A model generated the notes under the pieces. That model ran no database searches. It was not told the DNA's origin and saw only the letters and a list, made by a program, of their open reading frames with translations. Below are positions 3,451 through 49,305 of a DNA stretch of 64,000 bases, piece after piece. How positions within the stretch are numbered: position 1 is the stretch's first letter; each line of letters begins with the position of its first letter. The stretch is from a virus: the IMG/VR virus record IMGVR_UViG_3300042876_000344; one strand, written 5' to 3'. The position numbers and the translations under genes were made by a program.

Positions 3451-4363
3451 CAAGTCCTCTATTGAGTGGACCGACGCGACATGGTCCCCCTTCCGCGGCT
3501 GCACCCGGATCTCCCCTGGCTGCCAGAACTGCTATGCCGAGCGCATGGCAGCGCGCAATTTGCTAGGGCACAGATCACCCACGACGGGCAATCCGTTCGC
3601 CAACATGACGCAGGGTGGGCCGCGCTGGACGGGCAAGGTGGAGTTGATCGAGAGCCAGATGAATGCGCCCCTTCGCTGGCGCAGGCCGCGCCGGATATTT
3701 GTCAATTCGATGAGCGATACGTTCCACGAGCGCGTGTCCGTTGAGTGGATTGAACGCGTTTTCGCGGTGGCGTCAGTGTGCCAGCAGCACACGTTCATTA
3801 TGCTCACGAAAAGGTCAAAGCGCCTGCGCGAGTATCACGCCGAAGATCTCATGGGGCGCGGGGCAAGGCATCGCGTCTATAACCGCGCGTACGCCCTCGG
3901 GGCAATCTGGCAGCGGAGTCCCTCCGTAGGCTGGCCGCTCCGCAATATCCACATGGGCATCTCCGCTGAGGATCAACCGCGCTTCGATGAGCGAGTTGAA
4001 GATCTGCGCGCAACGCCCGCCGCCGTCCGCTGGCTCTCAATGGAGCCGCTACTTGGCCCCATTGATCTGGCTGGCCGGCTGGACGGCATCCACTGGGTTG
4101 TCGTCGGCGGCGAGTCTGGACCGGGCGCGCGGCCAGTCCAAAAGGATTGGGTGCGATCCATCCGGAACGCGTGCGTTGAGGCTGGCGTGCCGTTTTTCTT
4201 CAAGCAGTGGGGAGAATATCTCCCTCCAATGACGGATGGCGCGATCACAGATAACGGGCAGGTCCTGAACTGCTCCGATGTGCCAGTGCGTATCGGAAAG
4301 TCTCGCGCTGGGGCATCGCTTGATGGGCGCGAGTGGCGCGAACTGCCGGAGGCTGCGCGATGA
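3443..4363 (+). CDS. phage Gp37/Gp68 family protein (DUF5131-like)
   Basis: N-terminus MADKSSIEWTDATWSPFRGCTRISPGCQNCYAERMA is the hallmark start of the Gp37/Gp68 family. About 306 aa. Confidence 0.8.
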   Translation: MADKSSIEWTDATWSPFRGCTRISPGCQNCYAERMAARNLLGHRSPTTGNPFANMTQGGPRWTGKVELIESQMNAPLRWRRPRRIFVNSMSDTFHERVSVEWIERVFAVASVCQQHTFIMLTKRSKRLREYHAEDLMGRGARHRVYNRAYALGAIWQRSPSVGWPLRNIHMGISAEDQPRFDERVEDLRATPAAVRWLSMEPLLGPIDLAGRLDGIHWVVVGGESGPGARPVQKDWVRSIRNACVEAGVPFFFKQWGEYLPPMTDGAITDNGQVLNCSDVPVRIGKSRAGASLDGREWRELPEAAR

Positions 4364-5106
4364 GCCCCCGCCAACGTGCCGAGGCCATCATGGCCATCTC
4401 GCCCCGGCCCGCCTGCTTCAATGAGGCGTGGTGGGTGGAGCAGATCACCAGCGCCATCCAGGCGGCCATCAAGGATCTACTCGCCTCCGTAGTCGTGGGG
4501 GCCACCATGGACGGCAATGTGCGCGTGCGGGTGGGCGACTATGAGCAGGTAGTTGAGATCCGAACTGCGCAGCAACAGGCCCTCGCCGCCGCGCTGGAAG
4601 ACCTCGCCGCCGTGACTGCCGAGCGGGACGGGTTAGCCGACGAACTACGCAAGACGCACAAACTCCTGGGCGAGACGCAGGAGCGGTACGAAGCCGCGCT
4701 GGAGGAGAAGCGGGCGGAACTGGCGAAGGTAACCAAAGAGCGCGACGAACTGCGCGCGGAACTCGACACTTGCCCCGACTGCGAGGGCGAGGGGTACATC
4801 GAGAGCATCGGGTCCGACAATTACCCGGAGTCGGTTAGATGCGAGCATAAGGGGCTCAAGGCGGCGGAACTGGCGGCGGTCGCGCGGGAGCGGGACGGGC
4901 TTGCGGCGGCGCTGGCAACAGCTCTCCATCGCATGTCGTGTACCGTAAATCACTGCAAAGAGTGCTATGCCTACAGATTGTACAGCAGGCCGTCTGATGT
5001 CCTCGCCGCCCACGACCGCGCAGTCGCGGCGCGGGTGCTGCGGAGAGAAGCCGAGGGGCATTTTAAGGATGAGGGCTATTCGGATCTGAGTGTAGGTGTT
5101 CGCTAG
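4360..5106 (+). CDS. coiled-coil protein with CPDCEGEG zinc-knuckle-like motif (hypothetical)
   Basis: ATGA overlap with the upstream stop. Long heptad-like E/L/A/R region. Confidence 0.6.
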   Translation: MSPRQRAEAIMAISPRPACFNEAWWVEQITSAIQAAIKDLLASVVVGATMDGNVRVRVGDYEQVVEIRTAQQQALAAALEDLAAVTAERDGLADELRKTHKLLGETQERYEAALEEKRAELAKVTKERDELRAELDTCPDCEGEGYIESIGSDNYPESVRCEHKGLKAAELAAVARERDGLAAALATALHRMSCTVNHCKECYAYRLYSRPSDVLAAHDRAVAARVLRREAEGHFKDEGYSDLSVGVR

Positions 5107-5174
5107 GTGTTCGCTAATGATGCAACAGCGTCAAACTTCGGATTTGAGTGTTGACAACCACACTGGAATCCGAT
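5079..5174. repeat. three copies of a 15-bp motif (ACACNNNAATCCGAA and its reverse complement), two of them forming an imperfect palindrome around a -35 box
   Basis: TTCGGATCTGAGTGT at 5079-5093. TTCGGATTTGAGTGT at 5137-5151. ACACTGGAATCCGA at 5160-5173. Confidence 0.7.
5094..5115. repeat. exact 11-bp tandem duplication AGGTGTTCGCT x2 spanning the stop codon of gene 4360-5106
   Basis: Units at 5094-5104 and 5105-5115, read directly. Confidence 0.8.
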
Positions 5175-5179
5175 ATTGT
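5151..5179 (+). promoter_or_regulatory. sigma70-like promoter TTGACA-17 nt-TATTGT, with ATG 6 nt after the -10 (leaderless candidate)
   Basis: -35 at 5151-5156 and -10 at 5174-5179. ATG 5186 has no room for an SD. Flanked by the palindromic motif copies. Confidence 0.4.
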
Positions 5180-5185
5180 AAAAGC

Positions 5186-5464
5186 ATGACAAGTACAAGG
5201 ATCGACGCCAAAACGATGAAAGGTGAGATCCGAGTTCGCCGTGGCTACGACATTCGGGTTGACTCGAAGACTGGACAGAAGACGGAGGTTTCCCCCGTCG
5301 TTTGTATGTGCTGCCAGAAGGACATCTTTCACGTCTCTGAACTTATCAATGGCGACATCGTTGGACCGGGATGCGACGGACTCATTGCCTGTCCGGTGTA
5401 TCGGATTGGCCGCACGCTCAACAGGAAGCAAGCCGCATACGCTTCATCAAGGGGGTTGCTATGA
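5186..5464 (+). CDS. hypothetical small protein (CxxC-containing), first gene of the lower-GC island
   Basis: In-frame ATG 5186 inside track ORF 5096-5464, directly downstream of the predicted promoter. Stop overlaps the next start. Confidence 0.45.
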   Translation: MTSTRIDAKTMKGEIRVRRGYDIRVDSKTGQKTEVSPVVCMCCQKDIFHVSELINGDIVGPGCDGLIACPVYRIGRTLNRKQAAYASSRGLL

Positions 5465-5628
5465 CCGAGCAGGAAGTCGAGCTGATTATAGACAAATTGC
5501 GGGAAGCCGAGAGCATGGTGATCTCGGCCCTCTTGGACGACAGGAAGCGGGATAGCTGGGGGGCGTTGGACGAGTGTAAAGTTCTGATTTGGAAGGCAAT
5601 GGACCAAGCGGGAGACGCAGCACGATGA
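5461..5628 (+). CDS. hypothetical small protein
   Basis: ATG 5461 overlaps the upstream stop. Peptide MTEQEVELIIDKLREAESMV... is helical and protein-like. Confidence 0.5.
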   Translation: MTEQEVELIIDKLREAESMVISALLDDRKRDSWGALDECKVLIWKAMDQAGDAAR

Positions 5629-5804
5629 GTTGGGAAGCGTGGGGCAGCGGCCCGGAACCATTCGACGTTGACAAACTGTATCGGGAAGGGTGGGATTGCG
5701 ATGAGAGTTGTGTGGTGTGGTTCAAGGAGGAGGAGCCGGAGAAAGTCTACACACTGGATGAGGCAATCCAAATCTATGAGGATTGGCTATCAAATGAGGA
5801 GTAA
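5625..5804 (+). CDS. hypothetical small acidic protein
   Basis: ATGA coupling at 5625. MSWEAWGSGPEPFDVDKLYREGWDCDES... Confidence 0.5.
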   Translation: MSWEAWGSGPEPFDVDKLYREGWDCDESCVVWFKEEEPEKVYTLDEAIQIYEDWLSNEE

Positions 5805-5808
5805 CTCT

Positions 5809-6147
5809 ATGACGAGAGTCGTCGAGGTAAAGCCGGGTATTGAGATGCGGATTCGTGGCCTCCGATGGGATGACGGCTGGAGGTACGGCTCCCCGGTGGC
5901 ACTCATAGACCCCGTTCTGAAAGTGTACGAGGACGGACGGAGCCTAGAAAGGGCAATCGAAGACCTGTGTATTGATGCGTGTGTTTGCGGCGTACTGAAA
6001 GATGAGGAAGCATGGCGATGGGAAGCGGCTCCGGGTGGGTCCTTGGCCTACCTCAGACGCAAGTTTTACCGCACGCATGTCCAGCGAGTTGATTGTAAGG
6101 TGCGGTTCATTGTTGACGACGACGGAGAGTTGTGGTGGGAGGCGTAA
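5809..6147 (+). CDS. hypothetical protein
   Basis: GAGGAG lies 8 nt upstream of ATG 5809. MTRVVEVKPGIEMRIRGLRWDDGW... Confidence 0.55.
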   Translation: MTRVVEVKPGIEMRIRGLRWDDGWRYGSPVALIDPVLKVYEDGRSLERAIEDLCIDACVCGVLKDEEAWRWEAAPGGSLAYLRRKFYRTHVQRVDCKVRFIVDDDGELWWEA

Positions 6148-6551
6148 TGGGTATGTTTGCGCCGGGTAGAAGCGAGACGGTGAACTACCACTATTGGCCG
6201 ATCCGATTCGGCTGGTCTAGTGGGCCATACCAGCAAACACTTTGGCGGTGGGTTAGAAGGGCTATCGACAGCAGGCGGTGGACCCTCGATTACCCACACC
6301 GATACACTTGCCTGTCGTCGCTGGAAATTCACAGGGCTGCTGCCCGTCGAATGTGGCACGGTTGGCCCATCGGGGGCAGTTCAAGGGAGTATGGCTGGAC
6401 GCTTCACCTTGGACGGTTTAAGGTGTACTTCGGAGATCCGGACACCACACGGCAATCCGAAATCAGTACTAATGGTCCATCCACACCGCAATCCGAAGTT
6501 GGTAAACTGGCTTCATGCCAAACAGACTCGGACTCAAGGACTGGAAAGTGA
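6147..6551 (+). CDS. hypothetical protein; its 3' end runs through motif copies and overlaps the transposase start
   Basis: ATG 6147 shares a base with the upstream TAA. Trp-rich. The last ~35 codons are encoded by the repeat-containing segment and may not be native. Confidence 0.4.
   Translation: MGMFAPGRSETVNYHYWPIRFGWSSGPYQQTLWRWVRRAIDSRRWTLDYPHRYTCLSSLEIHRAAARRMWHGWPIGGSSREYGWTLHLGRFKVYFGDPDTTRQSEISTNGPSTPQSEVGKLASCQTDSDSRTGK
6447..6497. repeat. two direct copies of the 15-bp motif upstream of the transposase ATG
   Basis: ACACGGCAATCCGAA at 6447-6461. ACACCGCAATCCGAA at 6483-6497. Confidence 0.7.
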
Positions 6552-7837
6552 CGAACGTCGAAGAAAGCACAACAGACATGAGGGTGACGGCAGAGTACAC
6601 GCCGCCACCCACGGCCTGCCCTCGCTGTGGGTTGGCCGACCAGCCGCTCTACAAGCACGATGTCCGCACTCAGGAGTTCATGGATACCCCGCTCCACGGA
6701 AAGCGGGTCCATTTGATCGTGAGACGCCAGCGGTACGTCTGCCAAGGGTGCGAGAAAACCTTCCAGCAGATCCTTCCTGATATGGAGGAAGACCGCACGA
6801 TGACGAAGCGACTGGTGTCGTACATCAAGCGTCTATCGCTGGAAAAGAAGTTCACTGAGATTGCTGATGAGGTTGGAGTCAACGAGAAGACCGTCCGCAA
6901 CCTATTCAAAGAGCACGTCGAAAGGCTCGATTCCGAGCGGGTCATCACGGCCCCGGAGTGGCTTGGCGTGGATGAGCTTCACATATTGGGTGACTTTCGG
7001 GCGATGCTCACAGCCCCCGGCGAGAAGAAGATTCTTGACCTTCTGGAGAAACGAGACAAGGCTACCGTTCTCAAGTGGATGCTGGCCCTGCCCAACCGGA
7101 AGAACGTCAAGGTGGTGACGATGGACATGCACCGCCCGTACCGGGAAGCTGCGTTGGCAGCGTTTCCGAATGCCGCCTGTGTGGTGGATGTATTCCACGT
7201 CGTCAGGATGGCAAACAAAGCGGCGGATTCGCTCCGCATCGCACTCAAGGATGAACTGGACCCGAAGGTACGCCGGAAGATCAAGCGTGATCGGTGGATC
7301 ATTCAGGCACGTCGCAGGAACCTGAAGGCTGGCGACGTAATCATGCTGCATTCGTGGGATCGGGTAGTTCCGATGCTCTCGGCAGCATACCGGGCAAAGG
7401 AAGACTTCTACGACATCTACGAAAAGGCCAAGGACCGGGCGGAAGCTCTTGAACTGTGGGACTTGTGGCTGGAGATGTTGGAGCCGGAACTGAAGAAGCC
7501 CTTCAGTGAACTGATCCGGGCTGTGACGAACTGGAAGCCCGAAATCTTCAACTTCTTCGACTACCGGGGCAAGACCAACGCCTACACGGAAGCGATCAAT
7601 AGCGTCATTCGAGCCATCAACCGTGCTGGTCGTGGCTATAGCCTCGACGCCATCAGAGCCAAGGTGTTGTACGGCGGCAAGAAGCGGCAGACGGACACCG
7701 AGTACCAGAAGGTCGCCTTGTCGATGAAGATCAAGCGGCCCAAGGTGGACACAACTTATCGGGTGGACCCGGAGACAGTGCTCCATGTGGACAAACCACC
7801 CAAACCAAAGAAGAAGACAAGAAAGTATGAGAAATGA
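6515..7837 (+). CDS. ISL3-family DDE transposase (apparently intact)
   Basis: 440 aa. N-terminal zinc finger CPRCG...CQGCEK. HTH region. DDE-type core blocks VTMDMHRPY, VVDVFH and TNAYTEAINSVIRAINR, typical of ISL3 transposases. Confidence 0.9.
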   Translation: MPNRLGLKDWKVTNVEESTTDMRVTAEYTPPPTACPRCGLADQPLYKHDVRTQEFMDTPLHGKRVHLIVRRQRYVCQGCEKTFQQILPDMEEDRTMTKRLVSYIKRLSLEKKFTEIADEVGVNEKTVRNLFKEHVERLDSERVITAPEWLGVDELHILGDFRAMLTAPGEKKILDLLEKRDKATVLKWMLALPNRKNVKVVTMDMHRPYREAALAAFPNAACVVDVFHVVRMANKAADSLRIALKDELDPKVRRKIKRDRWIIQARRRNLKAGDVIMLHSWDRVVPMLSAAYRAKEDFYDIYEKAKDRAEALELWDLWLEMLEPELKKPFSELIRAVTNWKPEIFNFFDYRGKTNAYTEAINSVIRAINRAGRGYSLDAIRAKVLYGGKKRQTDTEYQKVALSMKIKRPKVDTTYRVDPETVLHVDKPPKPKKKTRKYEK

Positions 7838-7970
7838 ATGTCAACACTACAATCCGAATACCCAGGATGAGGTCTTTGGCTGGCATATCTCATCCGCCAC
7901 AGTTGGAAAAGAGTTGAGACGTCTTGCCGCCCAGTACGAGGCCGGCGAGCGGGAGGTGCCGGGTGAGTAG
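7827..7970 (+). CDS. small hypothetical protein ending in GEREVPGE
   Basis: ATG 7827 overlaps the transposase 3' end. The C-terminus and stop lie in the duplicated 28-bp junction. Confidence 0.35.
   Translation: MRNECQHYNPNTQDEVFGWHISSATVGKELRRLAAQYEAGEREVPGE
7839..7858. repeat. right-hand copy of the 15-bp motif and inverted-repeat partner of 5137-5156
   Basis: ACACTACAATCCGAA at 7844-7858, just after the transposase stop. Confidence 0.65.
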
Positions 7971-7971
7971 T
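7944..7971. repeat. 28-bp gene-junction repeat, copy 1 (GGCGAGCGGGAGGTGCCGGGTGAGTAGT)
   Basis: 27/28 identical to 8158-8185. Contains an RBS (GGGAGG), the GTG start of the next gene and the TAG stop of the previous one. Confidence 0.85.
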
Positions 7972-8184
7972 CCGAATTTCAGGCGGCTACTGGCCGCACA
8001 AATCGAGCCACATCTGATCAGAATCCACGGTTTGCTGGGGAGTGACTACAAGCTGACGCTCATCGCCAGGAACGCAACGATGGAGACCGCCGACGTGATT
8101 CTGACGGCTGACAACCTCGACCTCGCGATTGCGGCGGCGAAGAGGACACGCCAGAACGGCGAGCGGGAGGTACCGGGTGAGTAG
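7963..8184 (+). CDS. hypothetical small protein (GTG start, ends in GEREVPGE)
   Basis: GTG 7963 lies 6 nt after GGGAGG. VSSPNFRRLLAAQIEPHLIRIHG... Confidence 0.5.
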   Translation: MSSPNFRRLLAAQIEPHLIRIHGLLGSDYKLTLIARNATMETADVILTADNLDLAIAAAKRTRQNGEREVPGE

Positions 8185-8185
8185 T
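8158..8185. repeat. 28-bp gene-junction repeat, copy 2
   Basis: GGCGAGCGGGAGGTACCGGGTGAGTAGT. Confidence 0.85.
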
Positions 8186-8947
8186 TTCGAGTCCGAGTTT
8201 TATAGACTACGCGCTACCCTTGTCGACGTGCGGAATGCGGCGATGAGTCAGATTTCGCCGCCAGCGCCGCAGGAGATGGACCGAGAGGCCCTCGTCAATA
8301 TCGCGGAGACGGCCGAGGCAGGCCTCGCTGTGGACGTCCAGGCGCTGCATAAGCATACCGCGATGAGCAAGGCGGCGCAGGAAGATCGACCCTTGGTGCC
8401 AAGCCGAGTGCGCATCTACAGTTATCAGCACGAAGCGTACTGGCGCCCGAATGCGGGTGGCTACACGAGAGAGAAAGAAGAGGCGTGGGTCCTATCGCGA
8501 GCTGAAGCCGAGCGCATAACCAAGCACTGTGGTCCGGAAAAGAGGATCGAGTTAGAACTCGTGCCGAGCAGGTGGAAATCGCGAGCAGAGTTGGAAACTG
8601 AGAATGAGCGGCGCGCGAATGAGGCCCGCAACTGGCAGAGCACCGCAGAGCAGCATTGTCGCAATGAGCAGTATTACCGAGGGATGCTGGCCCAAATTGG
8701 AGAGACCCTCGGGCAGGCGGTCAAAACCTGTGACGACGGAACCACCGTGCCAGATGTTTTGGTGGCCAAGGTGGTGGAGGTCACACTGGCGCGCATCTCG
8801 GGGCTGGAGGCGGAGAACGCCCGGCTGCGGGCGGCGATCTTGGCGGCCCCACACGGGATGCTTTGCCAAGAGTATGCGCACTGGGAGAACGAAAAGTGTG
8901 ACTGCTGGAAGCAGGCCGCGCTGGCCGGGGAGGATTCCAATGGCTGA
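8177..8947 (+). CDS. hypothetical protein (GTG start VSSFESEF...)
   Basis: GTG 8177 sits in the same junction context as 7963. 256 aa with a coiled-coil C-terminal half. Confidence 0.6.
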   Translation: MSSFESEFYRLRATLVDVRNAAMSQISPPAPQEMDREALVNIAETAEAGLAVDVQALHKHTAMSKAAQEDRPLVPSRVRIYSYQHEAYWRPNAGGYTREKEEAWVLSRAEAERITKHCGPEKRIELELVPSRWKSRAELETENERRANEARNWQSTAEQHCRNEQYYRGMLAQIGETLGQAVKTCDDGTTVPDVLVAKVVEVTLARISGLEAENARLRAAILAAPHGMLCQEYAHWENEKCDCWKQAALAGEDSNG

Positions 8948-9284
8948 ATTCTTTACCTCGACCACGGCACTCAAACTCTACGAGGAGCAGATCGCTGTCC
9001 GCGACCGCCACATTGCGGAGTTGGAGGTGGCACTTCTGGGCTTCTACGCCGGCCACCAGGGCGGCAGTGACCCGAAACAGGATGACTGCCAATGCCTGAA
9101 TTGCCGCTCATACCGCGCGTACCGGGCGGGGAATACAATCTTGCTCAACGACATGCTCGCCGGGGCGAAACGGATGGCGCTAGAGGAGGCGGCAAGGCAC
9201 TTCGGCGTTGAGCCAACAGCCTCCTATCAGGGATCGACTGTCGAGGGGTTTCTGCTGAGCAAGGCGCGGGAGCCCCGTCCATGA
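8940..9284 (+). CDS. hypothetical protein
   Basis: ATGGCTGA overlap. MAEFFTSTTALKLYEEQIAVRDRHIAELE... Confidence 0.6.
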   Translation: MAEFFTSTTALKLYEEQIAVRDRHIAELEVALLGFYAGHQGGSDPKQDDCQCLNCRSYRAYRAGNTILLNDMLAGAKRMALEEAARHFGVEPTASYQGSTVEGFLLSKAREPRP

Positions 9285-21985: not shown

Positions 21986-22382
21986 GGTACGGCCTCGAAA
22001 CGACGAAGAAACTCCGGTCGGCCGTCTGGACAACCGGCGACGTCCCATCGTGCGAGATGAGTTGGATGAACCGGCCGGCGGCGAAATCGCCTCCAACCAG
22101 CGTCATGAAGCTGCTCGCCGGGCCGGCAGTGTACTCGACAGGAGCCCCGCCGACATCGTAGACGGGCGCCCATCCAGCGTCGTTGTAGGCTGGCACGTCG
22201 TTGGGATAGGCGAGCCCGCGGCCGTGGTGGACGTTGAGCCTGATCTTGGTCGCTCCCGCATCCCAGGCGGCGGGCATGAAGATGCCGACCAGCGCCTGCC
22301 CGTGGAGGGGGATCGGCTGGCTCACAGACCGGCCAGAAACGAAGCTGGCCGGAATCTCCTGCTGTTGGTAAAACTCGCTCAT
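21978..22382 (-). CDS. hypothetical protein
   Basis: 134 aa, ATGA-coupled to the giant ORF. Confidence 0.6.
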   Translation of the reverse strand: MSEFYQQQEIPASFVSGRSVSQPIPLHGQALVGIFMPAAWDAGATKIRLNVHHGRGLAYPNDVPAYNDAGWAPVYDVGGAPVEYTAGPASSFMTLVGGDFAAGRFIQLISHDGTSPVVQTADRSFFVVSRPYLG

Positions 22383-25300
22383 TCAGGTAGTCTCCTTAGG
22401 AATTCTTTCATGATTTCGACCTTGCGTTCTGGGGTAGCCGTGCGGATTGACTTTCCGCCCTCAGCCTTGATGACAGATTGGCGTGCCTGGTTTGCCGCGG
22501 AGTTGATGGCCCTCTTCTTCTGCTGCTCATCGAACGCATCAAATGCCGGGTTCGCCCTGATTCGCTTGATAGCCGCCCGCGCTGCCTTTTCCTGCGCCTC
22601 GCGCCGGAGGGTGTAGTAGGAATTCTCCTGCGCACCGCCGGCGGCAGACGTGAATCTCTTCAGCACCGCGGTGGGCAGCGTCTCTCCGCCGATCTCTTCG
22701 GGCTTGATCGCGCCCGCCGCTGCCGCTGCTGTGTCGGCGAGGTTCAGCAGTTGCGGCGTCCAGCCCCCGAGCGTGGATTTCACGAACTGCTCCACCTTGA
22801 TGGGAGGAGCGTTCAGTGCGCCGGCCAGCTTCTTCATCGTCCCGCTGGTATTCGGCGCCACCTGCTCCTCCACCGGCAGGTCCTGCAGCCGCTGGTTCAC
22901 GATGGGCTTCTGGCGGAAGGTGTCGAAGTTCGTTGCGTACTCTGTCGACGGCTTCGCGGCCTGCGGCAGGAGCCCCGCCCACATCCCGCGCGGGCTTGGA
23001 TCGAACGGCAACACGGACCCGGCAATCGGCCGTGCCACGTCCTGCAGCGGGTTCACCTTCTCCCCGCCCATCTGCGCTTCAATGGCGCGCCGAACAGGAG
23101 TGGCGATGGCGCCGATATCCGGAGCCATTTTCATTTTGAACACGCCATCGTACCGGCCGGTCTTTTCGTTCTTCACCGCGCCCGGCGCGATGTAGATCAT
23201 GTACCCCTCTTTTTCGTATTCGGGGATATCCCTGTAGATGGCCCTGCGCTTTTCGTCGTACATATTGGCGACGGTGAGCATCGCCATGGGAGCATACACC
23301 CCCACCATGATCTTCGTTGCGGTCTGGACGGGCCGATCCTGGAATGCTGACACGAACGACCTGGCGCCCTGGACGCGGGCGTTCAGGTAGAGGATGGCAC
23401 CGCCTAGGCCGTTGGTGACATCGCCATGCCGCCGATAGTTTGGGAGCTCATTATTGGCCGCATGGACGCCGGCGGCCTCAGCTTCAGCCGGAGTTGCCCC
23501 CCGCCGGAGATTCGCCCGCTCTGTCCCGAGGAACAGACGCGCCCGGCCAAACTGCTCGCCCCGGTTGTTGAAGTCCTCAATCGCGCGGATCAGACCGGCG
23601 GCGCGCTTTACGGGGATGCCGACAGCCCACTTGACCTTGTTGCCCTTGAACCCTTCGGCGTCGACCAAGTGCTTGGCGTAGTCCTTGGCACTGCGAAACT
23701 TCCGCATGCCGCCGACAGTCTGCGGCATCGTCTCACGGAACAGGTCCAGCGAAGTGAACCCGGCCCCGGTTTTCTCGATTCGGCTCCAGGTCTGGTTATG
23801 GAAGTAGGCCGCGGCGAACGCCTGCCCAAACACCTTCGGGTTTAGGGACGTGTCCCGGTATTCCTTCGAATTCACCAGGGTGGTGAACCAGTCTCCCACC
23901 GGGTTAGCAAAACCGAATGCGATGTTCGCCCCCGTCGTGCCCATCCGCGCCAAGCGCGCCGGCCCGTTCATGATGAGAGCCAGGGTCTTGTTCATCTGCT
24001 GGGCGTTGAGACATTTCGCCGCCGCCGCGATCTCCGGCGTGGTCTGGATGACGACCTTCTTGCCGTCGCGCAGATAGGTGAACGACGTTTTCGAGTCTGC
24101 CTCGCTGACCTCCTGCAGGAGCCCCTGCATTCCCGGCTTGTTGGCGTAGCTGGCCAGGAGCGCCGCCGCCTTGTTTTTCTCGCCCTGCTCGAATGCCTTC
24201 CGGGTCCTATCAAGCATCGTCTCAAGCGGGTTTTCGATGGCGCGCTCACTGCCGACACGCTTCTGGTAGACGCTCTGGGCGGAGAGGGATGCCGTCGCCT
24301 TCGTGCCAGACATGTTGGCGGATGCGTCTTCAATGGCGCCCATAATGCGGCTGAGAGGAACATGCTCTGTGCCGTATTGCTGCCGCCAGACGCCGGCGAT
24401 CTGCTGGCTCACCAGCCCTGACTTGACGCTATAATCCAGGAGCCTGTCACCAGCCAGCCCCACCTCTTTGGCGAGTTGCCCGTAGGTGATGCCGGATTCA
24501 TTGGCCGGCATGTTCACATACTTGTTGTAAATTGCCTTCGCTCCGGCCAGGTCAACGCCGGTAGCCCGGTCTTTGCCCTGCGACTCGCGGATGGCTTCCT
24601 TGGCCACAAGGAAATCGTTGAGGGCCTGGTAGTCGTCCGCGGCCTGAATCGCGCGCATGAGCCCGCCGTCGCGGATCTCGCGCTCTGCAAGCTCACGGCT
24701 GCCGAGCGATCGGTCGGCAGCGTTGCTGAAGTCCCGGCGCGATGAATCGTTGTTCTTCGCGAGCACGTCGAGGATCGGGGAGAGGTTGTCGACGAACTCC
24801 GCCTTCCGCTTGGTGAGTTTCTCTAGGAGCGAGTACTCCTTGCCCTTGCGCGCCGCTTCCCGCTTGGCCGCGAGGGTTGCCCGCGCCTGCTCTGCCGCGT
24901 CCATCGGCGGTGCCGGCTGCTTGCCTGGGATCGTGAGGAAGCCGCCCTGGTCGGCTAGGCGGCGGGGGGAGACTCCAGAGGGGGCGTCGAAGAGTCCGGG
25001 ACCTTCTGACGGACCACTGGCCACTCCTCCGCCAGGCTCCGCAGGAACGCCGCCTTCTCCTCCGCGGACAGCCTTGGATACCTCGGCTCTGACGATTCCG
25101 TAGAGTTGATCTGCGACCTGTTTGCGGGGCTTTCCATCGGCAACCTCTCGGGCTGCCTGGGCGATGGCGTCGGCGATTGGACCGGATTTATCCTGGAGGG
25201 CATCGAATACTCCCAGCGCCTCGCCAGCTTCTCCAGCGATCTGCGCGTTTCGTTCCGCCTCTATTTTATTCCCAGCGCCGGCCAAACGCGAGGCCGCGTT

Positions 25301-28300
25301 TTCGTTGCCGACGACGGAGAACAACCGCTTCTCTTGACCGAGCCGCGCCTTGATGTCGGCGACAAGGTGCGCTTCTTCGTTGAAGAGGCTCTCCTCGTAG
25401 GCATTCGTCCCGAACAGGGATTCCTGCTCAACCTGCTTGGATCCAGCCTTGCCTGCCCGGCGAACGACCTCTTCCAGCGCACCCTCTCGCATATTGGGAT
25501 GGCCAGCCATGAACTTCGCGACAGCGATCTGCGCCGCCTCGCTGAGGTTGCCCTTGCCGATGATGGCGCCCTGTCGGTGGGTGAGCCCGCCTCGCACAAC
25601 GTCGTCGAACAGCACGCCGGTCAACTTCGAGAGAGCGAGGCCGTCTTCGGCCACCTTCCCCTTCATCGAAATTCCGTTCGCGGCGAGTTCTTCCGGGGTG
25701 AGTCCACTGTCCCTGAATACCTTGGCTGCGTCAACAGCCGTGCCCTTGCCATCACCGATGTTGATGAGCGCGCCCTTCAGCCGGGCCTGTGCTGCGTTGG
25801 GGGCATCGACATACCGGACAGACATACTGTCCTCGCCGAGGCGTGCGGCCATCTCGTAGCGGTGGTGACCGTTGACAACGTAGGTCTTGCCGTCGGCAGG
25901 GTCGCGCCAGACCGCGATGGTTCCGGCCTTGTCCCTGTCGAACTTCGTGACGCCTTTGTACTCGTCGGTCACACCACCTTTGAGGTAGGCGTCCATCTTG
26001 TACTGGAACCGCTGCGGGTCGACGTGGAGATCCTCGATCGGAACGCGTATCTCCTTCGGATCGGCAACGACGCGCTGCTGCGCAGGGGCGGCCTGCGCTC
26101 CGCCGAGAGGGATATCCACTTGGCTACCATCTCGCTTGCTAAACGAAATGTGATCCAGTGTAATCTCCTGCCCATCCAGCGCCTTGTTGCCAGCGAACTT
26201 CGTGCCCTCGCCGGGCTTCACGTAGGCCAGCGTTACATGCGGCCGGTATGTCGGATGAGTATCGGTGTGTGGCAGGGCATCCGCGATAGCCTTGTTGATC
26301 CGATGAAGATCAGGTGATTCAACGTCGACCTTCACGACGTCAGATCCGCTGGCGTTCTTGGCGGGGAAGATACTAGTTTCCCCGAGGCGAGCACGAACCG
26401 GATGCTCCCGCGACAACACTTCGCGTATTTTTTCAATTGCTGCCGGAGAGTCATCATGCAGCCCGTACTTCACGGTGACATGCGGCTGGCTCTCCCTGCC
26501 ATCTTCCGCCAGCACGAAATCTGGGATTCTCAGGGATTCCTGCTTTACCTTGTCTGCGACTGGACCAGATAGGTTGGCCTGCGTAGATGCAAATTCGTGC
26601 GCAGGGGCGGCCTGCTCCGCCCCTGCTGGTGCTGCCTTCGGTTGGATCACCTCCTCTCTCGGGGGTTCCGACTTGAGTGCAGGCATGAGATCGTCGACGT
26701 GAATTTGAGCGCTGCCCGGGACGCCTACTGGTTGTAGTCCCTCGCGTCCGGAGGGGGGAATTTCTTGCCGGGATGGTCCTTCTGGAACTGCTCCTTGTTT
26801 TTGAAAAACTGGACCTGCTTCTCCCGGTGCTGCGCTTGGCTCTGCGACTGGTACGTTCCCAGGTTCTTGCCCTTGCCTGATACCAGCCGGAACTTGTTGC
26901 CCACTTTCTCGATCATTGGGGACCTCCAGGTCGTCGACAGTGAATACTTTCGCGGACTTCAGCGGGGTAGCCGGCTCGAATAGTGGCTTCGCTGGGGCAG
27001 GGGGTGCAGGGGCCTCAACAGCAGGCGGCTGTCGGGTTTCGTTATCTATGAACGTCTGGGCCGCATCCTGCGCTGACCGGGGTGCTTCGAACACGGCAGC
27101 GGATTCTGCGGCCGACTTGAACGGTGTGGCCGGCAGCGCTGTGTCTGGCCGCGCCTGCCAGGAATATTCCCATGGCAGCCTGGTGGAATCTTCGGGGTGA
27201 ACGTCGGCATAGCCCTGCTGATACGCGGCATCTTGGGCGGCCTTGGTGCGGTCGCCGTACCGTTCGAGCAACTGCTCTTTCCTGGATTTAGTAGGCTGGG
27301 CTACGGGCTGTTCTGTTTTCGGAACAGACGGCGGCATAATCTCCACCGGCTGCTCATTCGGTGCCGTCTCGCGTGTTCCGAAGTAATCGCCAGGGCGTTT
27401 CGCCTGCGCCGCGTGCTCCCGCCGCAACTGCTCCAGTTCGATGTTCGCGCGCTGCTCGCCGAGCCGGGCACCCTTGAAGGACGTCCCATTCGCACCGGGT
27501 GCAGCCAGCCCAGCGCCTGTCAGGAAAGCGGCTGCGGTGTCTGTGGGAGATCCGCCACCGATGGCGGTCTCCGCGCCCATCGCTGTGCCCATGCCAGCCA
27601 TCCTGGTGGCGGTGCGCGCCGGAGCCATGACGTGCCCTAGGGAGCCGAGCGCGGCACCCTTCGCTCCAGCCAGAGCAGCATGCCCGAATCCCTTGTCGGC
27701 TTCAGATGCGGCGTCGACGGCCGCCATGCCGAGAGGACCACCCAGCACCGCCGTAGCCACGCCATACTTCGCCAGATCGACAGGAGCCTGTCCGATGGCC
27801 TCATACAGGGGCTTCGCCAGCCCCGTGGCCCCCTGCCCTTCGAGTTTGTTCGCCTCTCCCTGGTAGAACTCCTCCACTGGAGTATACGGGTTTGCGTTCT
27901 CCGTGCCGGCTACGTGGTAGGTAGTCGCCCCGCGAAGCCCAAGATTCGCCGCCCGTGATGCGTCGGCGGCGATCTCATCGCGCCACCCCTTGCCAGGCGA
28001 GGCAGGAACAGAGGAGGGGACAGGCAGATCTGGCGCGACGGCGGGCTTCGACATATAGGGGTTGCCCGCCATGTCGGCGCCCATCTGCGCCAAGTTCCCG
28101 CCGAGTTTTGCCGTCTTCGCGACAGCGCGATTGTAGCCCTGCTGAATCGACCGCGCCGGCCGGATGATGCTCTCGCTGATGAGGTTCATCCCGGTTGCGC
28201 CGGGCGTCTCCTCCATCTTCACCTTCGGAGCGGCGATGCCCTTGAGAGGGATACCGGCCGCTTGCGATGCCTGCTCGTTGAGATCTGGAGGGACCAGATC

Positions 28301-28342
28301 GTCGACCGAAACCACGAGATCATCTACAGAGTATTTGGGCAT
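22379..28342 (-). CDS. giant polyvalent virion or ejection-type protein with 2H-phosphoesterase-like and ParB/Srx-like domains
   Basis: 1987-codon open frame. Gly/Ala-rich membrane-like N-terminus. Two HxT motifs (PHVTVKYGL near nt 26482, PHVTLAYV near nt 26239). ParB-like VDPQRFQYK...VVNGHHRYEMA at about 25763-26050. Long alpha-helical C-terminal ~1000 aa. Confidence 0.8.
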   Translation of the reverse strand: MPKYSVDDLVVSVDDLVPPDLNEQASQAAGIPLKGIAAPKVKMEETPGATGMNLISESIIRPARSIQQGYNRAVAKTAKLGGNLAQMGADMAGNPYMSKPAVAPDLPVPSSVPASPGKGWRDEIAADASRAANLGLRGATTYHVAGTENANPYTPVEEFYQGEANKLEGQGATGLAKPLYEAIGQAPVDLAKYGVATAVLGGPLGMAAVDAASEADKGFGHAALAGAKGAALGSLGHVMAPARTATRMAGMGTAMGAETAIGGGSPTDTAAAFLTGAGLAAPGANGTSFKGARLGEQRANIELEQLRREHAAQAKRPGDYFGTRETAPNEQPVEIMPPSVPKTEQPVAQPTKSRKEQLLERYGDRTKAAQDAAYQQGYADVHPEDSTRLPWEYSWQARPDTALPATPFKSAAESAAVFEAPRSAQDAAQTFIDNETRQPPAVEAPAPPAPAKPLFEPATPLKSAKVFTVDDLEVPNDRESGQQVPAGIRQGQEPGNVPVAEPSAAPGEAGPVFQKQGAVPEGPSRQEIPPSGREGLQPVGVPGSAQIHVDDLMPALKSEPPREEVIQPKAAPAGAEQAAPAHEFASTQANLSGPVADKVKQESLRIPDFVLAEDGRESQPHVTVKYGLHDDSPAAIEKIREVLSREHPVRARLGETSIFPAKNASGSDVVKVDVESPDLHRINKAIADALPHTDTHPTYRPHVTLAYVKPGEGTKFAGNKALDGQEITLDHISFSKRDGSQVDIPLGGAQAAPAQQRVVADPKEIRVPIEDLHVDPQRFQYKMDAYLKGGVTDEYKGVTKFDRDKAGTIAVWRDPADGKTYVVNGHHRYEMAARLGEDSMSVRYVDAPNAAQARLKGALINIGDGKGTAVDAAKVFRDSGLTPEELAANGISMKGKVAEDGLALSKLTGVLFDDVVRGGLTHRQGAIIGKGNLSEAAQIAVAKFMAGHPNMREGALEEVVRRAGKAGSKQVEQESLFGTNAYEESLFNEEAHLVADIKARLGQEKRLFSVVGNENAASRLAGAGNKIEAERNAQIAGEAGEALGVFDALQDKSGPIADAIAQAAREVADGKPRKQVADQLYGIVRAEVSKAVRGGEGGVPAEPGGGVASGPSEGPGLFDAPSGVSPRRLADQGGFLTIPGKQPAPPMDAAEQARATLAAKREAARKGKEYSLLEKLTKRKAEFVDNLSPILDVLAKNNDSSRRDFSNAADRSLGSRELAEREIRDGGLMRAIQAADDYQALNDFLVAKEAIRESQGKDRATGVDLAGAKAIYNKYVNMPANESGITYGQLAKEVGLAGDRLLDYSVKSGLVSQQIAGVWRQQYGTEHVPLSRIMGAIEDASANMSGTKATASLSAQSVYQKRVGSERAIENPLETMLDRTRKAFEQGEKNKAAALLASYANKPGMQGLLQEVSEADSKTSFTYLRDGKKVVIQTTPEIAAAAKCLNAQQMNKTLALIMNGPARLARMGTTGANIAFGFANPVGDWFTTLVNSKEYRDTSLNPKVFGQAFAAAYFHNQTWSRIEKTGAGFTSLDLFRETMPQTVGGMRKFRSAKDYAKHLVDAEGFKGNKVKWAVGIPVKRAAGLIRAIEDFNNRGEQFGRARLFLGTERANLRRGATPAEAEAAGVHAANNELPNYRRHGDVTNGLGGAILYLNARVQGARSFVSAFQDRPVQTATKIMVGVYAPMAMLTVANMYDEKRRAIYRDIPEYEKEGYMIYIAPGAVKNEKTGRYDGVFKMKMAPDIGAIATPVRRAIEAQMGGEKVNPLQDVARPIAGSVLPFDPSPRGMWAGLLPQAAKPSTEYATNFDTFRQKPIVNQRLQDLPVEEQVAPNTSGTMKKLAGALNAPPIKVEQFVKSTLGGWTPQLLNLADTAAAAAGAIKPEEIGGETLPTAVLKRFTSAAGGAQENSYYTLRREAQEKAARAAIKRIRANPAFDAFDEQQKKRAINSAANQARQSVIKAEGGKSIRTATPERKVEIMKEFLRRLPE
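26725..26916 (-). CDS. 63-aa gene nested in the +1 frame inside the giant ORF
   Basis: GGAGG at 26923-26927 lies 6 nt before ATG 26916. MIEKVGNKFRLVSGKGKNLGTYQSQSQAQHREKQVQFFKNKEQFQKDHPGKKFPPPDARDYNQ. 53/63 codons end in G/C, versus about one third in the host frame over the same stretch. Confidence 0.6.
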   Translation of the reverse strand: MIEKVGNKFRLVSGKGKNLGTYQSQSQAQHREKQVQFFKNKEQFQKDHPGKKFPPPDARDYNQ

Positions 28343-47319: not shown

Positions 47320-49305
47320 TCAACTCCTCATCATCAGTAGCCGCTTTGCCTTTGATGCCAGCCTTGGGATATGCGTCACCCGACGGCCGACTTCCCGATC
47401 ACGCGCCGCAGCTTCCGCTGCGCGATTCACCTGCACCATCGTACTCGCATTCGCGCCAGGATGGCAAGCCCTATATGCCTCTACCTTGTTTTGAATGAAC
47501 ACGTCACGAGGGAGGGCCTCTTCCGCGAACGCGAAATTATGGACCAGATGAACTGCACTATCCAGTACGTCATCACCGTCCTGCTTCGCCGCCTCTTCCG
47601 TGTTTCCGTCCTTCTCTACCGCCGCCTGAATCCCCTGGATCAGGTTCACGCACTCAGAGAAAATCTGCAGTACCGGCAGTACTTCCTGTTTTATCTCCTC
47701 GATTGAGCGCTTGTACTCGGCGTAGGCTGTCACCCCTTGGGTGTCGATCAGGTATCGCGCCACATTCTCGTCGTAAACCGGGGCCCCAGTCAGAGGCTGC
47801 CAGCGCATGTACTCCCGCATCAGGGTGTAGCCGTGCTTCCGTTTCGCGCCACCGCCGGCCGGAATCAGCGCCAGGGCCACCCTTGCGGAAACTGCCGCAT
47901 ACCGCGCCTGCAGGCTCTCCCATGCTTCCTTCGGCGTCATCCCCTGTTCATCATCGTTCGGGGCGAACGCGAACACCGTGCCGGAGCCGAGCACCGCCTC
48001 CATCCCACGCTTGATCTGATCCGCCTCTGATTCTCTACCATCCCGATGGAAACAGTCGTGAGACAGGTAGACACTCATCGCATGTGATGGCAACGCCTGG
48101 AGATCCTTGTACGCCAACTCCGCAACGTGCGCGCCGGCCTCCATCGTCGATAGCCCGCGGAATTTAGATTCCTTATAGAACACGAGTTGCTTATTCGGTT
48201 TCCAACATGCCAGCGTTACGCCGGAGTCATGGCTGTAGCCCCAGTCGAACCCGATCGCCCGCGGCCACCACGGCGCCAGATAGCAGGGGTCGATGACGTG
48301 GACGGCGTTCTCCGGCTCGCTAGCGTGCCGTGTCTTCCGGAACGTCCTGAAGAATGAGCCAGCCACCACGTCGAAATCGCCCAAGCCCATGCGCTTGTAC
48401 TCGATCTCGTCGAACGTCTTCATCGACTCCAGGTTCTGGATGTACTGGCTGTTCTCTTCCAGGAAGTATGGATTGTCCCAAGCTGTCGAGTGGATGGCCA
48501 GCCGCTTCGTACCGGTGATTGGGCAAACGTAGGGCTTACCGTACGGCCATGGCTCAGCGCCACCGTGCGCGTAGCGGAACCGCTTGTTGATCCAGGGGAC
48601 GCCCGGGCCGTTCGGGTTCAGTGTCAGCATGACTTGGCAACGCATCTCCCGTCCGTACTTCGTGCGGTTGCGTTGCTTCAGTCGGACGTACAGCAGCTCC
48701 GTCTCGATGTGGCTGGCTTCCTCGATCACGATCCGAACGAACTGCTTGCCCATGTACTTCTGGTAGGAGTTCGGATCTGCCAGGTGGCCGAAGTACACAG
48801 CCGCCCCAGACGGGAACTCCACCATCATTGGGTTCTCTTTGCAGTCGGCGCCGAGCTTCTTCGCGATGTCGCTGAACCGGCGGTAGTAGTCGTCGAGGTC
48901 GGTGGCGTTCTTGCGGAGCACCAGCGCCTCGTACTTCGGATGGGCGCAGTACGACACGTCGGCCGGTGTGTCGCCGACTGGGCGGAGGTTCCCCCTCAAT
49001 AGAAAACCAAAGGTTGCTTCCGTCTTCGCCGACCCAGCTCCGCCGAACAGCGCGATCTCGTCGGCATCCGACGTCAACGCCTGCGCCTGCGGGCCAGGCT
49101 TGCAGCGGCAGGGGATTTTGTGCTGGTGGTGGAAGACCCGCTTGCCATCGGGCCCGATGTCGTATCCGGCGCACTTCACGTACCGCCAGGCGATCAGGTC
49201 CTCGTCCTGCGCGGCAACGTGCTGCGCGTACTCCTCGCCTTTGAGGTTGGCAAAGAGGACCTGCGGGGGCGGTGCCTTCTTGACCTTCGAGGAAATGCGG
49301 GCCAT
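47320..49305 (-). CDS. terL: terminase large subunit
   Basis: 661 aa. Walker A-like LFGGAGSAKTE. Walker B-like RIVIEEASH. RNaseH-fold nuclease-like IGFDWGYSHDSG. First gene of the late operon. Confidence 0.8.
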   Translation of the reverse strand: MARISSKVKKAPPPQVLFANLKGEEYAQHVAAQDEDLIAWRYVKCAGYDIGPDGKRVFHHQHKIPCRCKPGPQAQALTSDADEIALFGGAGSAKTEATFGFLLRGNLRPVGDTPADVSYCAHPKYEALVLRKNATDLDDYYRRFSDIAKKLGADCKENPMMVEFPSGAAVYFGHLADPNSYQKYMGKQFVRIVIEEASHIETELLYVRLKQRNRTKYGREMRCQVMLTLNPNGPGVPWINKRFRYAHGGAEPWPYGKPYVCPITGTKRLAIHSTAWDNPYFLEENSQYIQNLESMKTFDEIEYKRMGLGDFDVVAGSFFRTFRKTRHASEPENAVHVIDPCYLAPWWPRAIGFDWGYSHDSGVTLACWKPNKQLVFYKESKFRGLSTMEAGAHVAELAYKDLQALPSHAMSVYLSHDCFHRDGRESEADQIKRGMEAVLGSGTVFAFAPNDDEQGMTPKEAWESLQARYAAVSARVALALIPAGGGAKRKHGYTLMREYMRWQPLTGAPVYDENVARYLIDTQGVTAYAEYKRSIEEIKQEVLPVLQIFSECVNLIQGIQAAVEKDGNTEEAAKQDGDDVLDSAVHLVHNFAFAEEALPRDVFIQNKVEAYRACHPGANASTMVQVNRAAEAAARDREVGRRVTHIPRLASKAKRLLMMRS

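Follow-up and report, generated by a model that had tools for sequence, protein, structure and literature searches.

Insertion sequences (IS) of the ISL3 family, for example ISL3, IS1096, IS31831 and IS1411, have an 8-bp target duplication as a family hallmark, and their ends are imperfect inverted repeats of 15-39 bp that usually start with GG. In Mu and Tn7, arrays of sites are present at both ends, the target duplication comprises 5 bp and there is an accessory ATPase. Autoregulated promoters within the left inverted repeat are a feature of IS1, IS10/IS50, IS30 and IS911. ISPpu12, an ISL3 element from plasmid pWW0, possesses imperfect 24-bp repeats and 8-bp duplications and carries czcD as a passenger gene (PMC3735179). 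The mechanism by which members of the ISL3 family transpose has been reported as still unclear (PMC10886379). Here, we describe an ISL3 element that resides in a tailed phage, at positions 5074-7863 of a 64,000-nucleotide stretch of the IMG/VR virus record IMGVR_UViG_3300042876_000344 (the window in the following). The element has canonical ISL3 ends and a canonical 8-bp target duplication, and a 15-bp motif that is present in it in six copies, ACACNNNAATCCGAA, is the core of its terminal repeat. We consider it highly probable that the element as a whole is an ISL3 transposon with passenger genes, the internal motif copies of which function as operators for its transposase.

The element is delimited by the following features:

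5074-7863, plus strand: transposon of the ISL3 family, 2,790 bp, carrying passenger genes and bounded by inverted repeats and a target duplication
5066-5073, no strand assigned: left copy of the target-site duplication, AGGATGAG, identical to 7864-7871
7864-7871, no strand assigned: right copy of the target-site duplication, AGGATGAG, identical to 5066-5073
5074-5093, plus strand: site A, the left terminal inverted repeat, GGCTATTCGGATCTGAGTGT, containing the motif copy at 5079-5093
7844-7863, minus strand: site F, the right terminal inverted repeat, given as the reverse complement GGGTATTCGGATTGTAGTGT, containing the motif copy at 7844-7858

Read from the tip inwards, the terminal arms are GGCTATTCGGATCTGAGTGT on the left and GGGTATTCGGATTGTAGTGT on the right, with GG at both tips. 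A repeat finder aligned 5074-5093 with 7844-7863 at 16 of 20 positions, the first 12 bases matching at 11. The direct repeat AGGATGAG abuts both arms and is perfect at 8 bp only, not at 7 or 9, and an 8-mer match at this spacing occurs at just 3 of 61,194 positions in the window. GG-tipped imperfect 20-bp repeats in combination with an 8-bp duplication identify a canonical ISL3-family insertion. A preliminary description of this DNA had reported neither canonical IS ends nor an 8-bp target duplication, and had named normal inverted and direct repeats beforehand as the finding that would decide against exotic ends. Both kinds of repeat are present and that reading falls; the true ends lie 63 bp (left) and 5 bp (right) outside the earlier placement. 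The 18/20 inverted repeat between 5137-5156 and 7839-7858 is real, as the repeat finder confirmed, but it is not the outermost one, since the pair 5074-5093/7844-7863 lies farther out. Site F begins 6 bp past the transposase stop codon, and its likeness to the left-hand partner of the 18/20 repeat (site B below) reaches inward to 7839. The lower GC content of the island was borne out (55.1% for the element and 61.0% for the rest of the window, about 2.6 standard deviations below the mean of equal-sized windows), though one other stretch of the same length is equally low. The Rfam scan of 4800-8200 yielded nothing credible, a single long non-coding RNA match (E=0.36) being below threshold.

The gene interrupted by the insertion is recognizable on both sides of the element:

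4333-5073, plus strand: 5' part of the interrupted phage gene, its frame now ending in the left repeat with ...HFKDEGYSDLSVGVR and a stop codon
7872-7970, plus strand: displaced 3' part of this gene, VFGWHISSATVGKELRRLAAQYEAGEREVPGE and a stop codon, in frame with 4333 when 5073 is joined to 7872

Deletion of 5074-7871 in silico fuses ...HFKDE to VFGWHISSATVGKELRRLAAQYEAGEREVPGE and its stop codon in the frame of ORF 4333 (ORF, open reading frame). A search with the reconstructed protein retrieved uninterrupted homologues (P0122-P0126) that end in ...YEAGEREVPGE or similarly, and P0122 spans the junction without a gap at 70% identity. In-frame restoration and gap-free homologues place the element in a phage gene, at its 3' end. 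This gene is an early one, and the element points in the direction of the phage genes. The in-frame joining of 5136 to 7859 that had been proposed earlier is superseded by the junction 5073/7872, which restores ORF 4333.

The end of the interrupted gene shows a further peculiarity. A 29-bp direct repeat (7943-7971 and 8157-8185, 97% identical, CGGCGAGCGGGAGGT(G/A)CCGGGTGAGTAGT) ends two successive phage genes, both encoding GEREVPGE as the last residues before the stop codon. P0122-P0126 end likewise despite different bodies, and the repeat looks like a conserved gene junction or a C-terminal tag of paralogous early genes.

Between the ends, the ORF list and Pfam confirm an intact ISL3 transposase gene and five small coupled ORFs, as stated in the preliminary description:

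5186-5464, plus strand: cargo ORF1, 92 amino acids from the ATG at 5186, frame open from 5096
5461-5628, plus strand: cargo ORF2, 55 amino acids, its start overlapping the stop of ORF1 (ATGA)
5625-5804, plus strand: cargo ORF3, 59 amino acids, its start overlapping the stop of ORF2
5809-6147, plus strand: cargo ORF4, 112 amino acids, with nine homologues
6147-6551, plus strand: cargo ORF5, 134 amino acids as an ORF, the conserved part covering about residues 11-97 and the tail being translated through two of the motif copies (sites D and E below)
6515-7837, plus strand: intact ISL3 transposase gene, 440 amino acids, recognized by Pfam, PHROG and invariant residues

The transposase matches the Pfam domain DDE_Tnp_ISL3 (PF01610) with E=3.5e-52 over profile positions 1-237 of 240, and Zn_ribbon_ISL3 (PF14690) with E=1.3e-12 and 48.4 bits (cut-off 25.5). 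The match to the helix-turn-helix domain HTH_Tnp_ISL3 (PF13542; E=5e-6) is slightly under the cut-off, with 26.2 as compared to 27.4 bits. PHROG 5749, annotated as 'transposase', was matched at 3e-117. Residues D153, D204 and E359 do not vary among 22 homologues and probably constitute the catalytic triad. The motif is presumably bound by the N-terminal region comprising zinc ribbon and helix-turn-helix. A scan of IMG/VR with the transposase returned only one relative, at 35% identity, which was used for its ends alone.

The five cargo ORFs are tightly coupled, with stops and starts that overlap or abut, and are small phage-type genes. None of them has a match in Pfam, PHROGs or PADLOC, and no DNA-binding domain is recognizable in them with Pfam and PHROGs. 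ORF4 can be taken as a real protein on the grounds of its nine homologues (57-98% identity), some of which are encoded in phage backbones without motif or transposase (L102, L103). ORF5 has just 9 relatives among 1.8 billion representatives, aligned over residues 11-97, and is the only cargo common to the element in the window and a related one, L002; otherwise, the cargo sets differ. The AlphaFold model of ORF5 is too poor for a fold search (predicted local distance difference test, pLDDT, 56; below 50 for tail residues 102-134). For ORF4 the model reached a pLDDT of 92 and a predicted template modelling score of 0.83, and found no significant fold match in PDB or BFVD; as judged from this model, ORF4 may represent a small phage protein fold not yet described.

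When one mismatch was allowed, the motif ACACNNNAATCCGAA occurred six times, always within 5079-7858: at 5079-5093 and 5137-5151 on the minus strand and at 5160-5174, 6447-6461, 6483-6497 and 7844-7858 on the plus strand. Not a single copy is present elsewhere in the 64-kb window, just as had been noted before. Dinucleotide-preserving shuffles gave an expected count of 0.26, and none of 100 shuffles reached six. The sites, read tip-inward, and a tandem repeat lying between the first two are:

5074-5093, plus strand: site A, left end, GGCTATTCGGATCTGAGTGTAGGTG
5094-5115, plus strand: 11-bp repeat AGGTGTTCGCT, two tandem units in the interval from site A to site B, with TTCG cores that do not vary among six diverged relatives
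5137-5156, plus strand: site B, a second, subterminal left copy (TTCGGATTTGAGTGTTGACA) without the GG tip, CAAACTTCGGATTTGAGTGTTGACA; its inner end is TTGACA (5151-5156)
5160-5174, plus strand: site C, without tip, ACAATATCGGATTCCAGTGTGGTTG; inverted relative to B, 8 bp away, and abutting the hexamer 5174-5179
6447-6461, plus strand: site D, without tip, CTGATTTCGGATTGCCGTGTGGTGT; distal member of a pair before the transposase gene, with the orientation of the right end
6483-6497, plus strand: site E, without tip, CCAACTTCGGATTGCGGTGTGGATG; followed by GTTGG and then TAAACT (6503-6508)
7844-7863, minus strand: site F, right end, GGGTATTCGGATTGTAGTGTTGACA

The core TCGGAT-NNN(N)-GTGT is common to all six sites, and a GG(G/C)TAT tip is found in A and F only. 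Site B has the orientation of A and is found 58 bp inward from the left end. The 11-bp tandem repeat could, by its sequence, be a second kind of binding site or consist of half-sites of the main motif.

All ISL3-defining features that were tested, i.e. domains, ends, duplication and mobility, are present in the element. Like a simple ISL3 insertion sequence, it has DDE_Tnp_ISL3, zinc ribbon and helix-turn-helix domains, GG ends and an 8-bp duplication. In contrast to such an IS, it is 2.8 kb long, twice the size, owing to the five passenger genes (5186-6551, between left repeat and transposase gene), has four extra core copies without tips and resides in a phage. It resembles ISPpu12, judged by the description of the latter, in that passenger genes are enclosed in one pair of repeats and 8 bp are duplicated; however, its cargo consists of small phage-type ORFs instead of metal or lipoprotein genes, and the nearest ISL3 transposases retrieved from cells and plasmids share only about 40-45% identity with its own. 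Plasmid pKF715A of Pseudomonas putida was considered as a carrier of ISPpu12 and rejected, as it holds a different ISL3 element. This element (L101, 2365-4889) encodes an ISL3 transposase with 44% identity, preceded by a gene of the AbiEii/AbiGii toxin family and a small ORF, and provides an example of defence or toxin-antitoxin cargo.

Among cellular sequences, the nearest transposase (51% identity) stems from a metagenome-assembled genome of the Bryobacteraceae, and others from Paenibacillus, Burkholderiales, cyanobacteria and further groups are 38-45% identical. Many of the distant cellular ISL3 elements, including some of Paenibacillus, Burkholderiales and cyanobacteria, share the repeat consensus GGGTATCCGGATTTGAGTGTGT or GGGTATTCGGATTTTATGGTGG (GGGTAT(T/C)CGGATTT.AGTGT) and have 8-bp duplications. 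They measure 2-4 kb and have their transposase gene next to the right end, which means that they also carry passenger genes. Translation of their transposase gene seems to be coupled to that of the cargo, and no promoter of its own was found for this gene. Seven of these elements (L015, L019, L027, L035, L045, L052 and L061) possess a B-like copy at 45-60 bp from the left end; that of L045 contains GTTGACA, which is present in the right end and absent from the left tip.

Phage genomes rarely contain insertion sequences, and transposases of the ISL3 type were detected in 50 of 50,697 isolated phage records, all at less than 40% identity. This applies to Burkholderia phage Bcep22, Vibrio phages K2xx/Seahorse and Lysinibacillus phage vB_LspM-01, which resemble the phage studied here as tailed phages with an ISL3-type transposase (PHROG 5749). 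Homologues of the transposase are numerous, with roughly 25 clusters at 66% identity or more. Closer relatives were found by inspecting contigs for transposase clusters at 90, 81, 80, 77, 70 and 66% identity. All contexts inspected are phage-like, with dense small ORFs on the same strand, and the neighbouring genes include those for RecT, SSB, DnaB, AAA_24, Gp157, ParB, integrase, an N6_N4 methylase (N6_N4_Mtase) and terminase. The elements of this phage clade have the same tips, the tip of site A (GGCTATTCGGAT) being kept across the phage-borne relatives, and a length of 1.8-2.75 kb. Their duplications are CAAAATCC (element of 2,403 bp), TTCCAGGG (1,826 and 1,807 bp), GGAGGTAG (2,747 bp), CATCGAAC (1,872 bp), CGTATTCC (1,896 bp) and CAACCACG (1,958 bp). 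Together with that in the window, this makes seven independent insertions at distinct target sites, each 8-bp duplication being unrelated to the others; along with the uninterrupted homologues of the disrupted gene, they document mobility. The preliminary view of the island as mobile foreign DNA around an ISL3 transposase, with the 15-mer tied to the transposase and not to the phage, is upheld, as is the statement that sites in both orientations outnumber those required by a simple IS.

Some regularities of these seven insertions may be recorded. All are co-directional with the flanking phage genes and lie either among early/replication genes or immediately upstream of terminase genes. The duplicated target 8-mers have no obvious consensus and are not AT-rich.

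The arrangement of the sites is conserved in the phage clade. The tip of A is followed by B at +58 bp in the same orientation, an offset that is identical in L002, L010, L094, L097 and L108, and by C, inverted, 8 bp past B. D and E, in direct orientation and spaced by 32-36 bp, precede the transposase ATG as a pair in most members of the clade, and F is located at the right tip. In alignments of six diverged elements, identity is confined to the sites, the two TTCG cores in the interval between A and B, which occupy alignment columns 26-29 and 36-39, and two -10-like hexamers, and it collapses where the cargo starts. In the alignment of site E from six relatives, T.CACA...AATCCGA is invariant.

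Two of the internal pairs coincide with promoter-like sequences, the first of which is:

5151-5179, plus strand: -35 hexamer TTGACA (5151-5156), a 17-bp spacer filled by site C, and -10 hexamer TATTGT (5174-5179), 10/12 in a promoter scan

The first cargo ATG (5186) follows 6 nucleotides past TATTGT, and TAT(T/A)(G/A)T is kept at the same place in relatives of the phage clade, along with site C. Upstream of the transposase gene the -10-like hexamer TAAACT (6503-6508) ends 6 nucleotides before the ATG. The hexamers after E in six elements read TAAACT, TACAAT, TAATCT, TAAGCT, TACCAT and TATACT at a gap of 5-6 nucleotides from E; T1, A2 and T6 of this TAnnnT are invariant in the six relatives, and ATGCC comes six nucleotides on. 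An ATG 6 nucleotides past each -10 hexamer predicts that both cargo and transposase mRNAs are leaderless.

On the basis of these data the following mode of action is proposed. The ends A and F, with their GG(G/C)TAT tip, would be cut and joined. Sites B, C, D and E contain the core and no tip, so they would be bound by the transposase and would escape cutting. B would be an accessory left-end site that may help to assemble the left end and to tell left from right. At the same time B would provide the -35 hexamer of the cargo promoter and C would occupy its spacer, and a second promoter, that of the transposase gene, would be covered by D and E in its -35 and spacer part. Transposase on B/C and D/E would then occlude both promoters and keep expression of transposase and cargo low. 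Such autoregulation appears to be the most likely role of the internal sites. The transposase is the candidate for binding the motif because it is the sole protein common to all motif-bearing elements: the cargo varies between elements and the sites stay. The proposed logic, a transposase recognition sequence that overlaps the transposase's own promoter, would be the same as in IS1, IS10/IS50, IS30 and IS911. Unlike in these, separate internal copies (B/C and D/E) and not the terminal repeat would be used, and two promoters would be affected. Two further ideas were rejected. A promoter formed at a circle junction does not apply since TTGACA of the right repeat points inward and not across the tip. 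A small peptide encoded over B/C (MMQQ..TSD..VDNH.GIRY) was dismissed as substitutions in the relatives lie outside the DNA motifs and the frame in L010 stops after 28 codons.

Several observations weigh against this interpretation. The tips of A and F differ at one of the first 12 bases and the arms are only 16/20 alike. The putative -35 hexamer of the transposase promoter (TCCACA) is weak, with 4/6 matches. Promoters were called by conservation and by match to a consensus that may not be that of the host, and both binding and repression by the transposase are deduced from sequence. B is degenerate in the 1.8-kb type represented by L005 and D is degenerate in L097; hence, not every one of the six sites is indispensable. 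Furthermore, the distant cellular relatives that have a B-like copy yielded no counterpart of C, D or E, so that the role of these three is not a general ISL3 property and their presence could be an accident of the clade.

An alternative possibility, which we regard as doubtful albeit worth serious consideration, is that the internal copies are purely architectural, either as sites recruiting extra transposase protomers with which the transposition complex is built or oriented, or as alternative ends, and play no role in expression. The conservation of B at a similar offset in very distant ISL3 elements suits transposition chemistry, and F is matched better by B (18/20) than by A (16/20). On the other hand, D and E are 1.4 kb away from either end and lie directly on the -10 hexamer and the ATG of the transposase gene, C and the -10 hexamer of the cargo promoter abut exactly, and among the loci examined no insertion from B to F with a duplication of its own was seen.

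Derivatives of the element reveal that recombination takes place at the sites. L106 (Logan SRR21143140_407297, 380-500) contains an ORF5 with 93% identity and site D, followed by the hybrid site GGTCCATACACACTACAATCCGAATACCC, the left half of which is E and the right half F. As read from this sequence, L106 has lost its transposase gene by deletion between the direct repeats E and F and is left as a non-autonomous cargo element with an intact right tip adjoining a phage integrase gene. L010 (3576-6322) harbours three D/E modules at element coordinates 579/614, 1100/1135 and 1358/1393. Each of them closes a cargo block, and the ORF after the first module starts with MPN..., like the transposase. 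This arrangement suggests that the cargo blocks were stacked by recombination at D/E modules. L008 (293-2134) agrees with L005 in the 1,826-bp element and the right flank, but its left flank is a different one and an 8-bp duplication is absent, as expected from recombination between two copies in different phages. The decayed L105 (Logan SRR6986813_4232, 570-1480) retains the left repeat, a C-like site, an ORF4 homologue, the D/E pair and no more than roughly the first 45 transposase codons; unrelated genes come next and, farther on, a glycosyltransferase cluster and a methyltransferase gene.

The hybrid site of L106, the three modules of L010 and the mismatched left flank of L008 would also be in line with the internal copies being functionless scars of past recombination or nested insertions. 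This explanation is quite improbable: elements that have diverged to 66% transposase identity still agree in the number, order, orientation and spacing of their sites and not in the intervening sequence, D and E do not have the orientation that the left end of a nested IS would require, and the internal copies are devoid of tips and duplications. For the same reasons, i.e. right-end orientation and lack of tips and of a duplication, the possibility that a smaller nested IS has D/E as its left end was rejected.

It had also been suggested that a phage regulator uses the motif copies as operators. The first part of this suggestion is retained, as the internal copies do lie on promoter-like elements. 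The second part is abandoned, as the sites travel with the transposon. Operators for a regulator encoded by phage or cargo, instead of transposase sites, would explain why B/C and D/E overlap promoter-like elements and why B and C together are palindromic, as in many repressor operators. Nevertheless, we deem this very unlikely, because the 61 kb of phage backbone contain no copy and the sites accompany the element in all seven phage backgrounds, which are unrelated. Moreover, a cargo-encoded regulator is disfavoured by cargo sets that have only ORF5 in common between window and L002 and by the absence of a DNA-binding domain recognizable in the cargo ORFs. Finally, the motif is identical to the core of both terminal repeats and, in all loci examined, was found only with the transposon or its remnants.

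An ISL3 transposase that dispenses with canonical ends and relies, as Mu or Tn7 do, on several subterminal sites merits virtually no credence: there are indeed more than two transposase-type sites in both orientations, and the two left-end sites A and B, in the same orientation and 58 bp apart, loosely recall L1/L2 of Mu, but this element, like the six other insertions, has canonical inverted repeats and a duplication of 8 bp instead of 5 bp, only one site is present at the right end, C, D and E are either remote from the ends or inverted, the transposase families are unrelated and neither an accessory ATPase nor a target selector was matched by Pfam among the five cargo ORFs and the transposase.

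Having favoured operators for the transposase, we note a hint at a wider role of the element. The three D/E modules of L010, the loss via E/F in L106 and the ORF4 homologues in element-free backbones point towards a phage-specialised ISL3 lineage, comprising the clade with at least 66% transposase identity, that would pass small phage genes from one phage to another, unrelated one and in which D/E would serve at once as operators and as borders at which cargo blocks are added, stacked or removed. We put this forward tentatively and think it rather unlikely in this full form.

The window represents the genome of a tailed phage of roughly 65 kb and stems from a metagenomic contig of 65.8 kb, with the gene for the large terminase subunit at 47320-49305 on the minus strand and genes for beta-helix, collagen-like and DUF5131 proteins. 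A DNA search of 4300-9000 against the 50,697 isolated phage records gave no match. A phage protein of 1,987 amino acids (22379-28342, minus strand) combines LPD38 'large polyvalent protein' and 2'-5' RNA ligase superfamily domains.

With the textbook ISL3 insertion established, the false lead of a transposase with exotic ends is removed. As far as sampled, the clade to which the element belongs is found in phages only and carries small phage genes as interchangeable cargo, which makes it a possible vehicle of gene exchange. The conserved layout of six sites over two promoters offers a testable model of how ISL3 transposases may regulate themselves.

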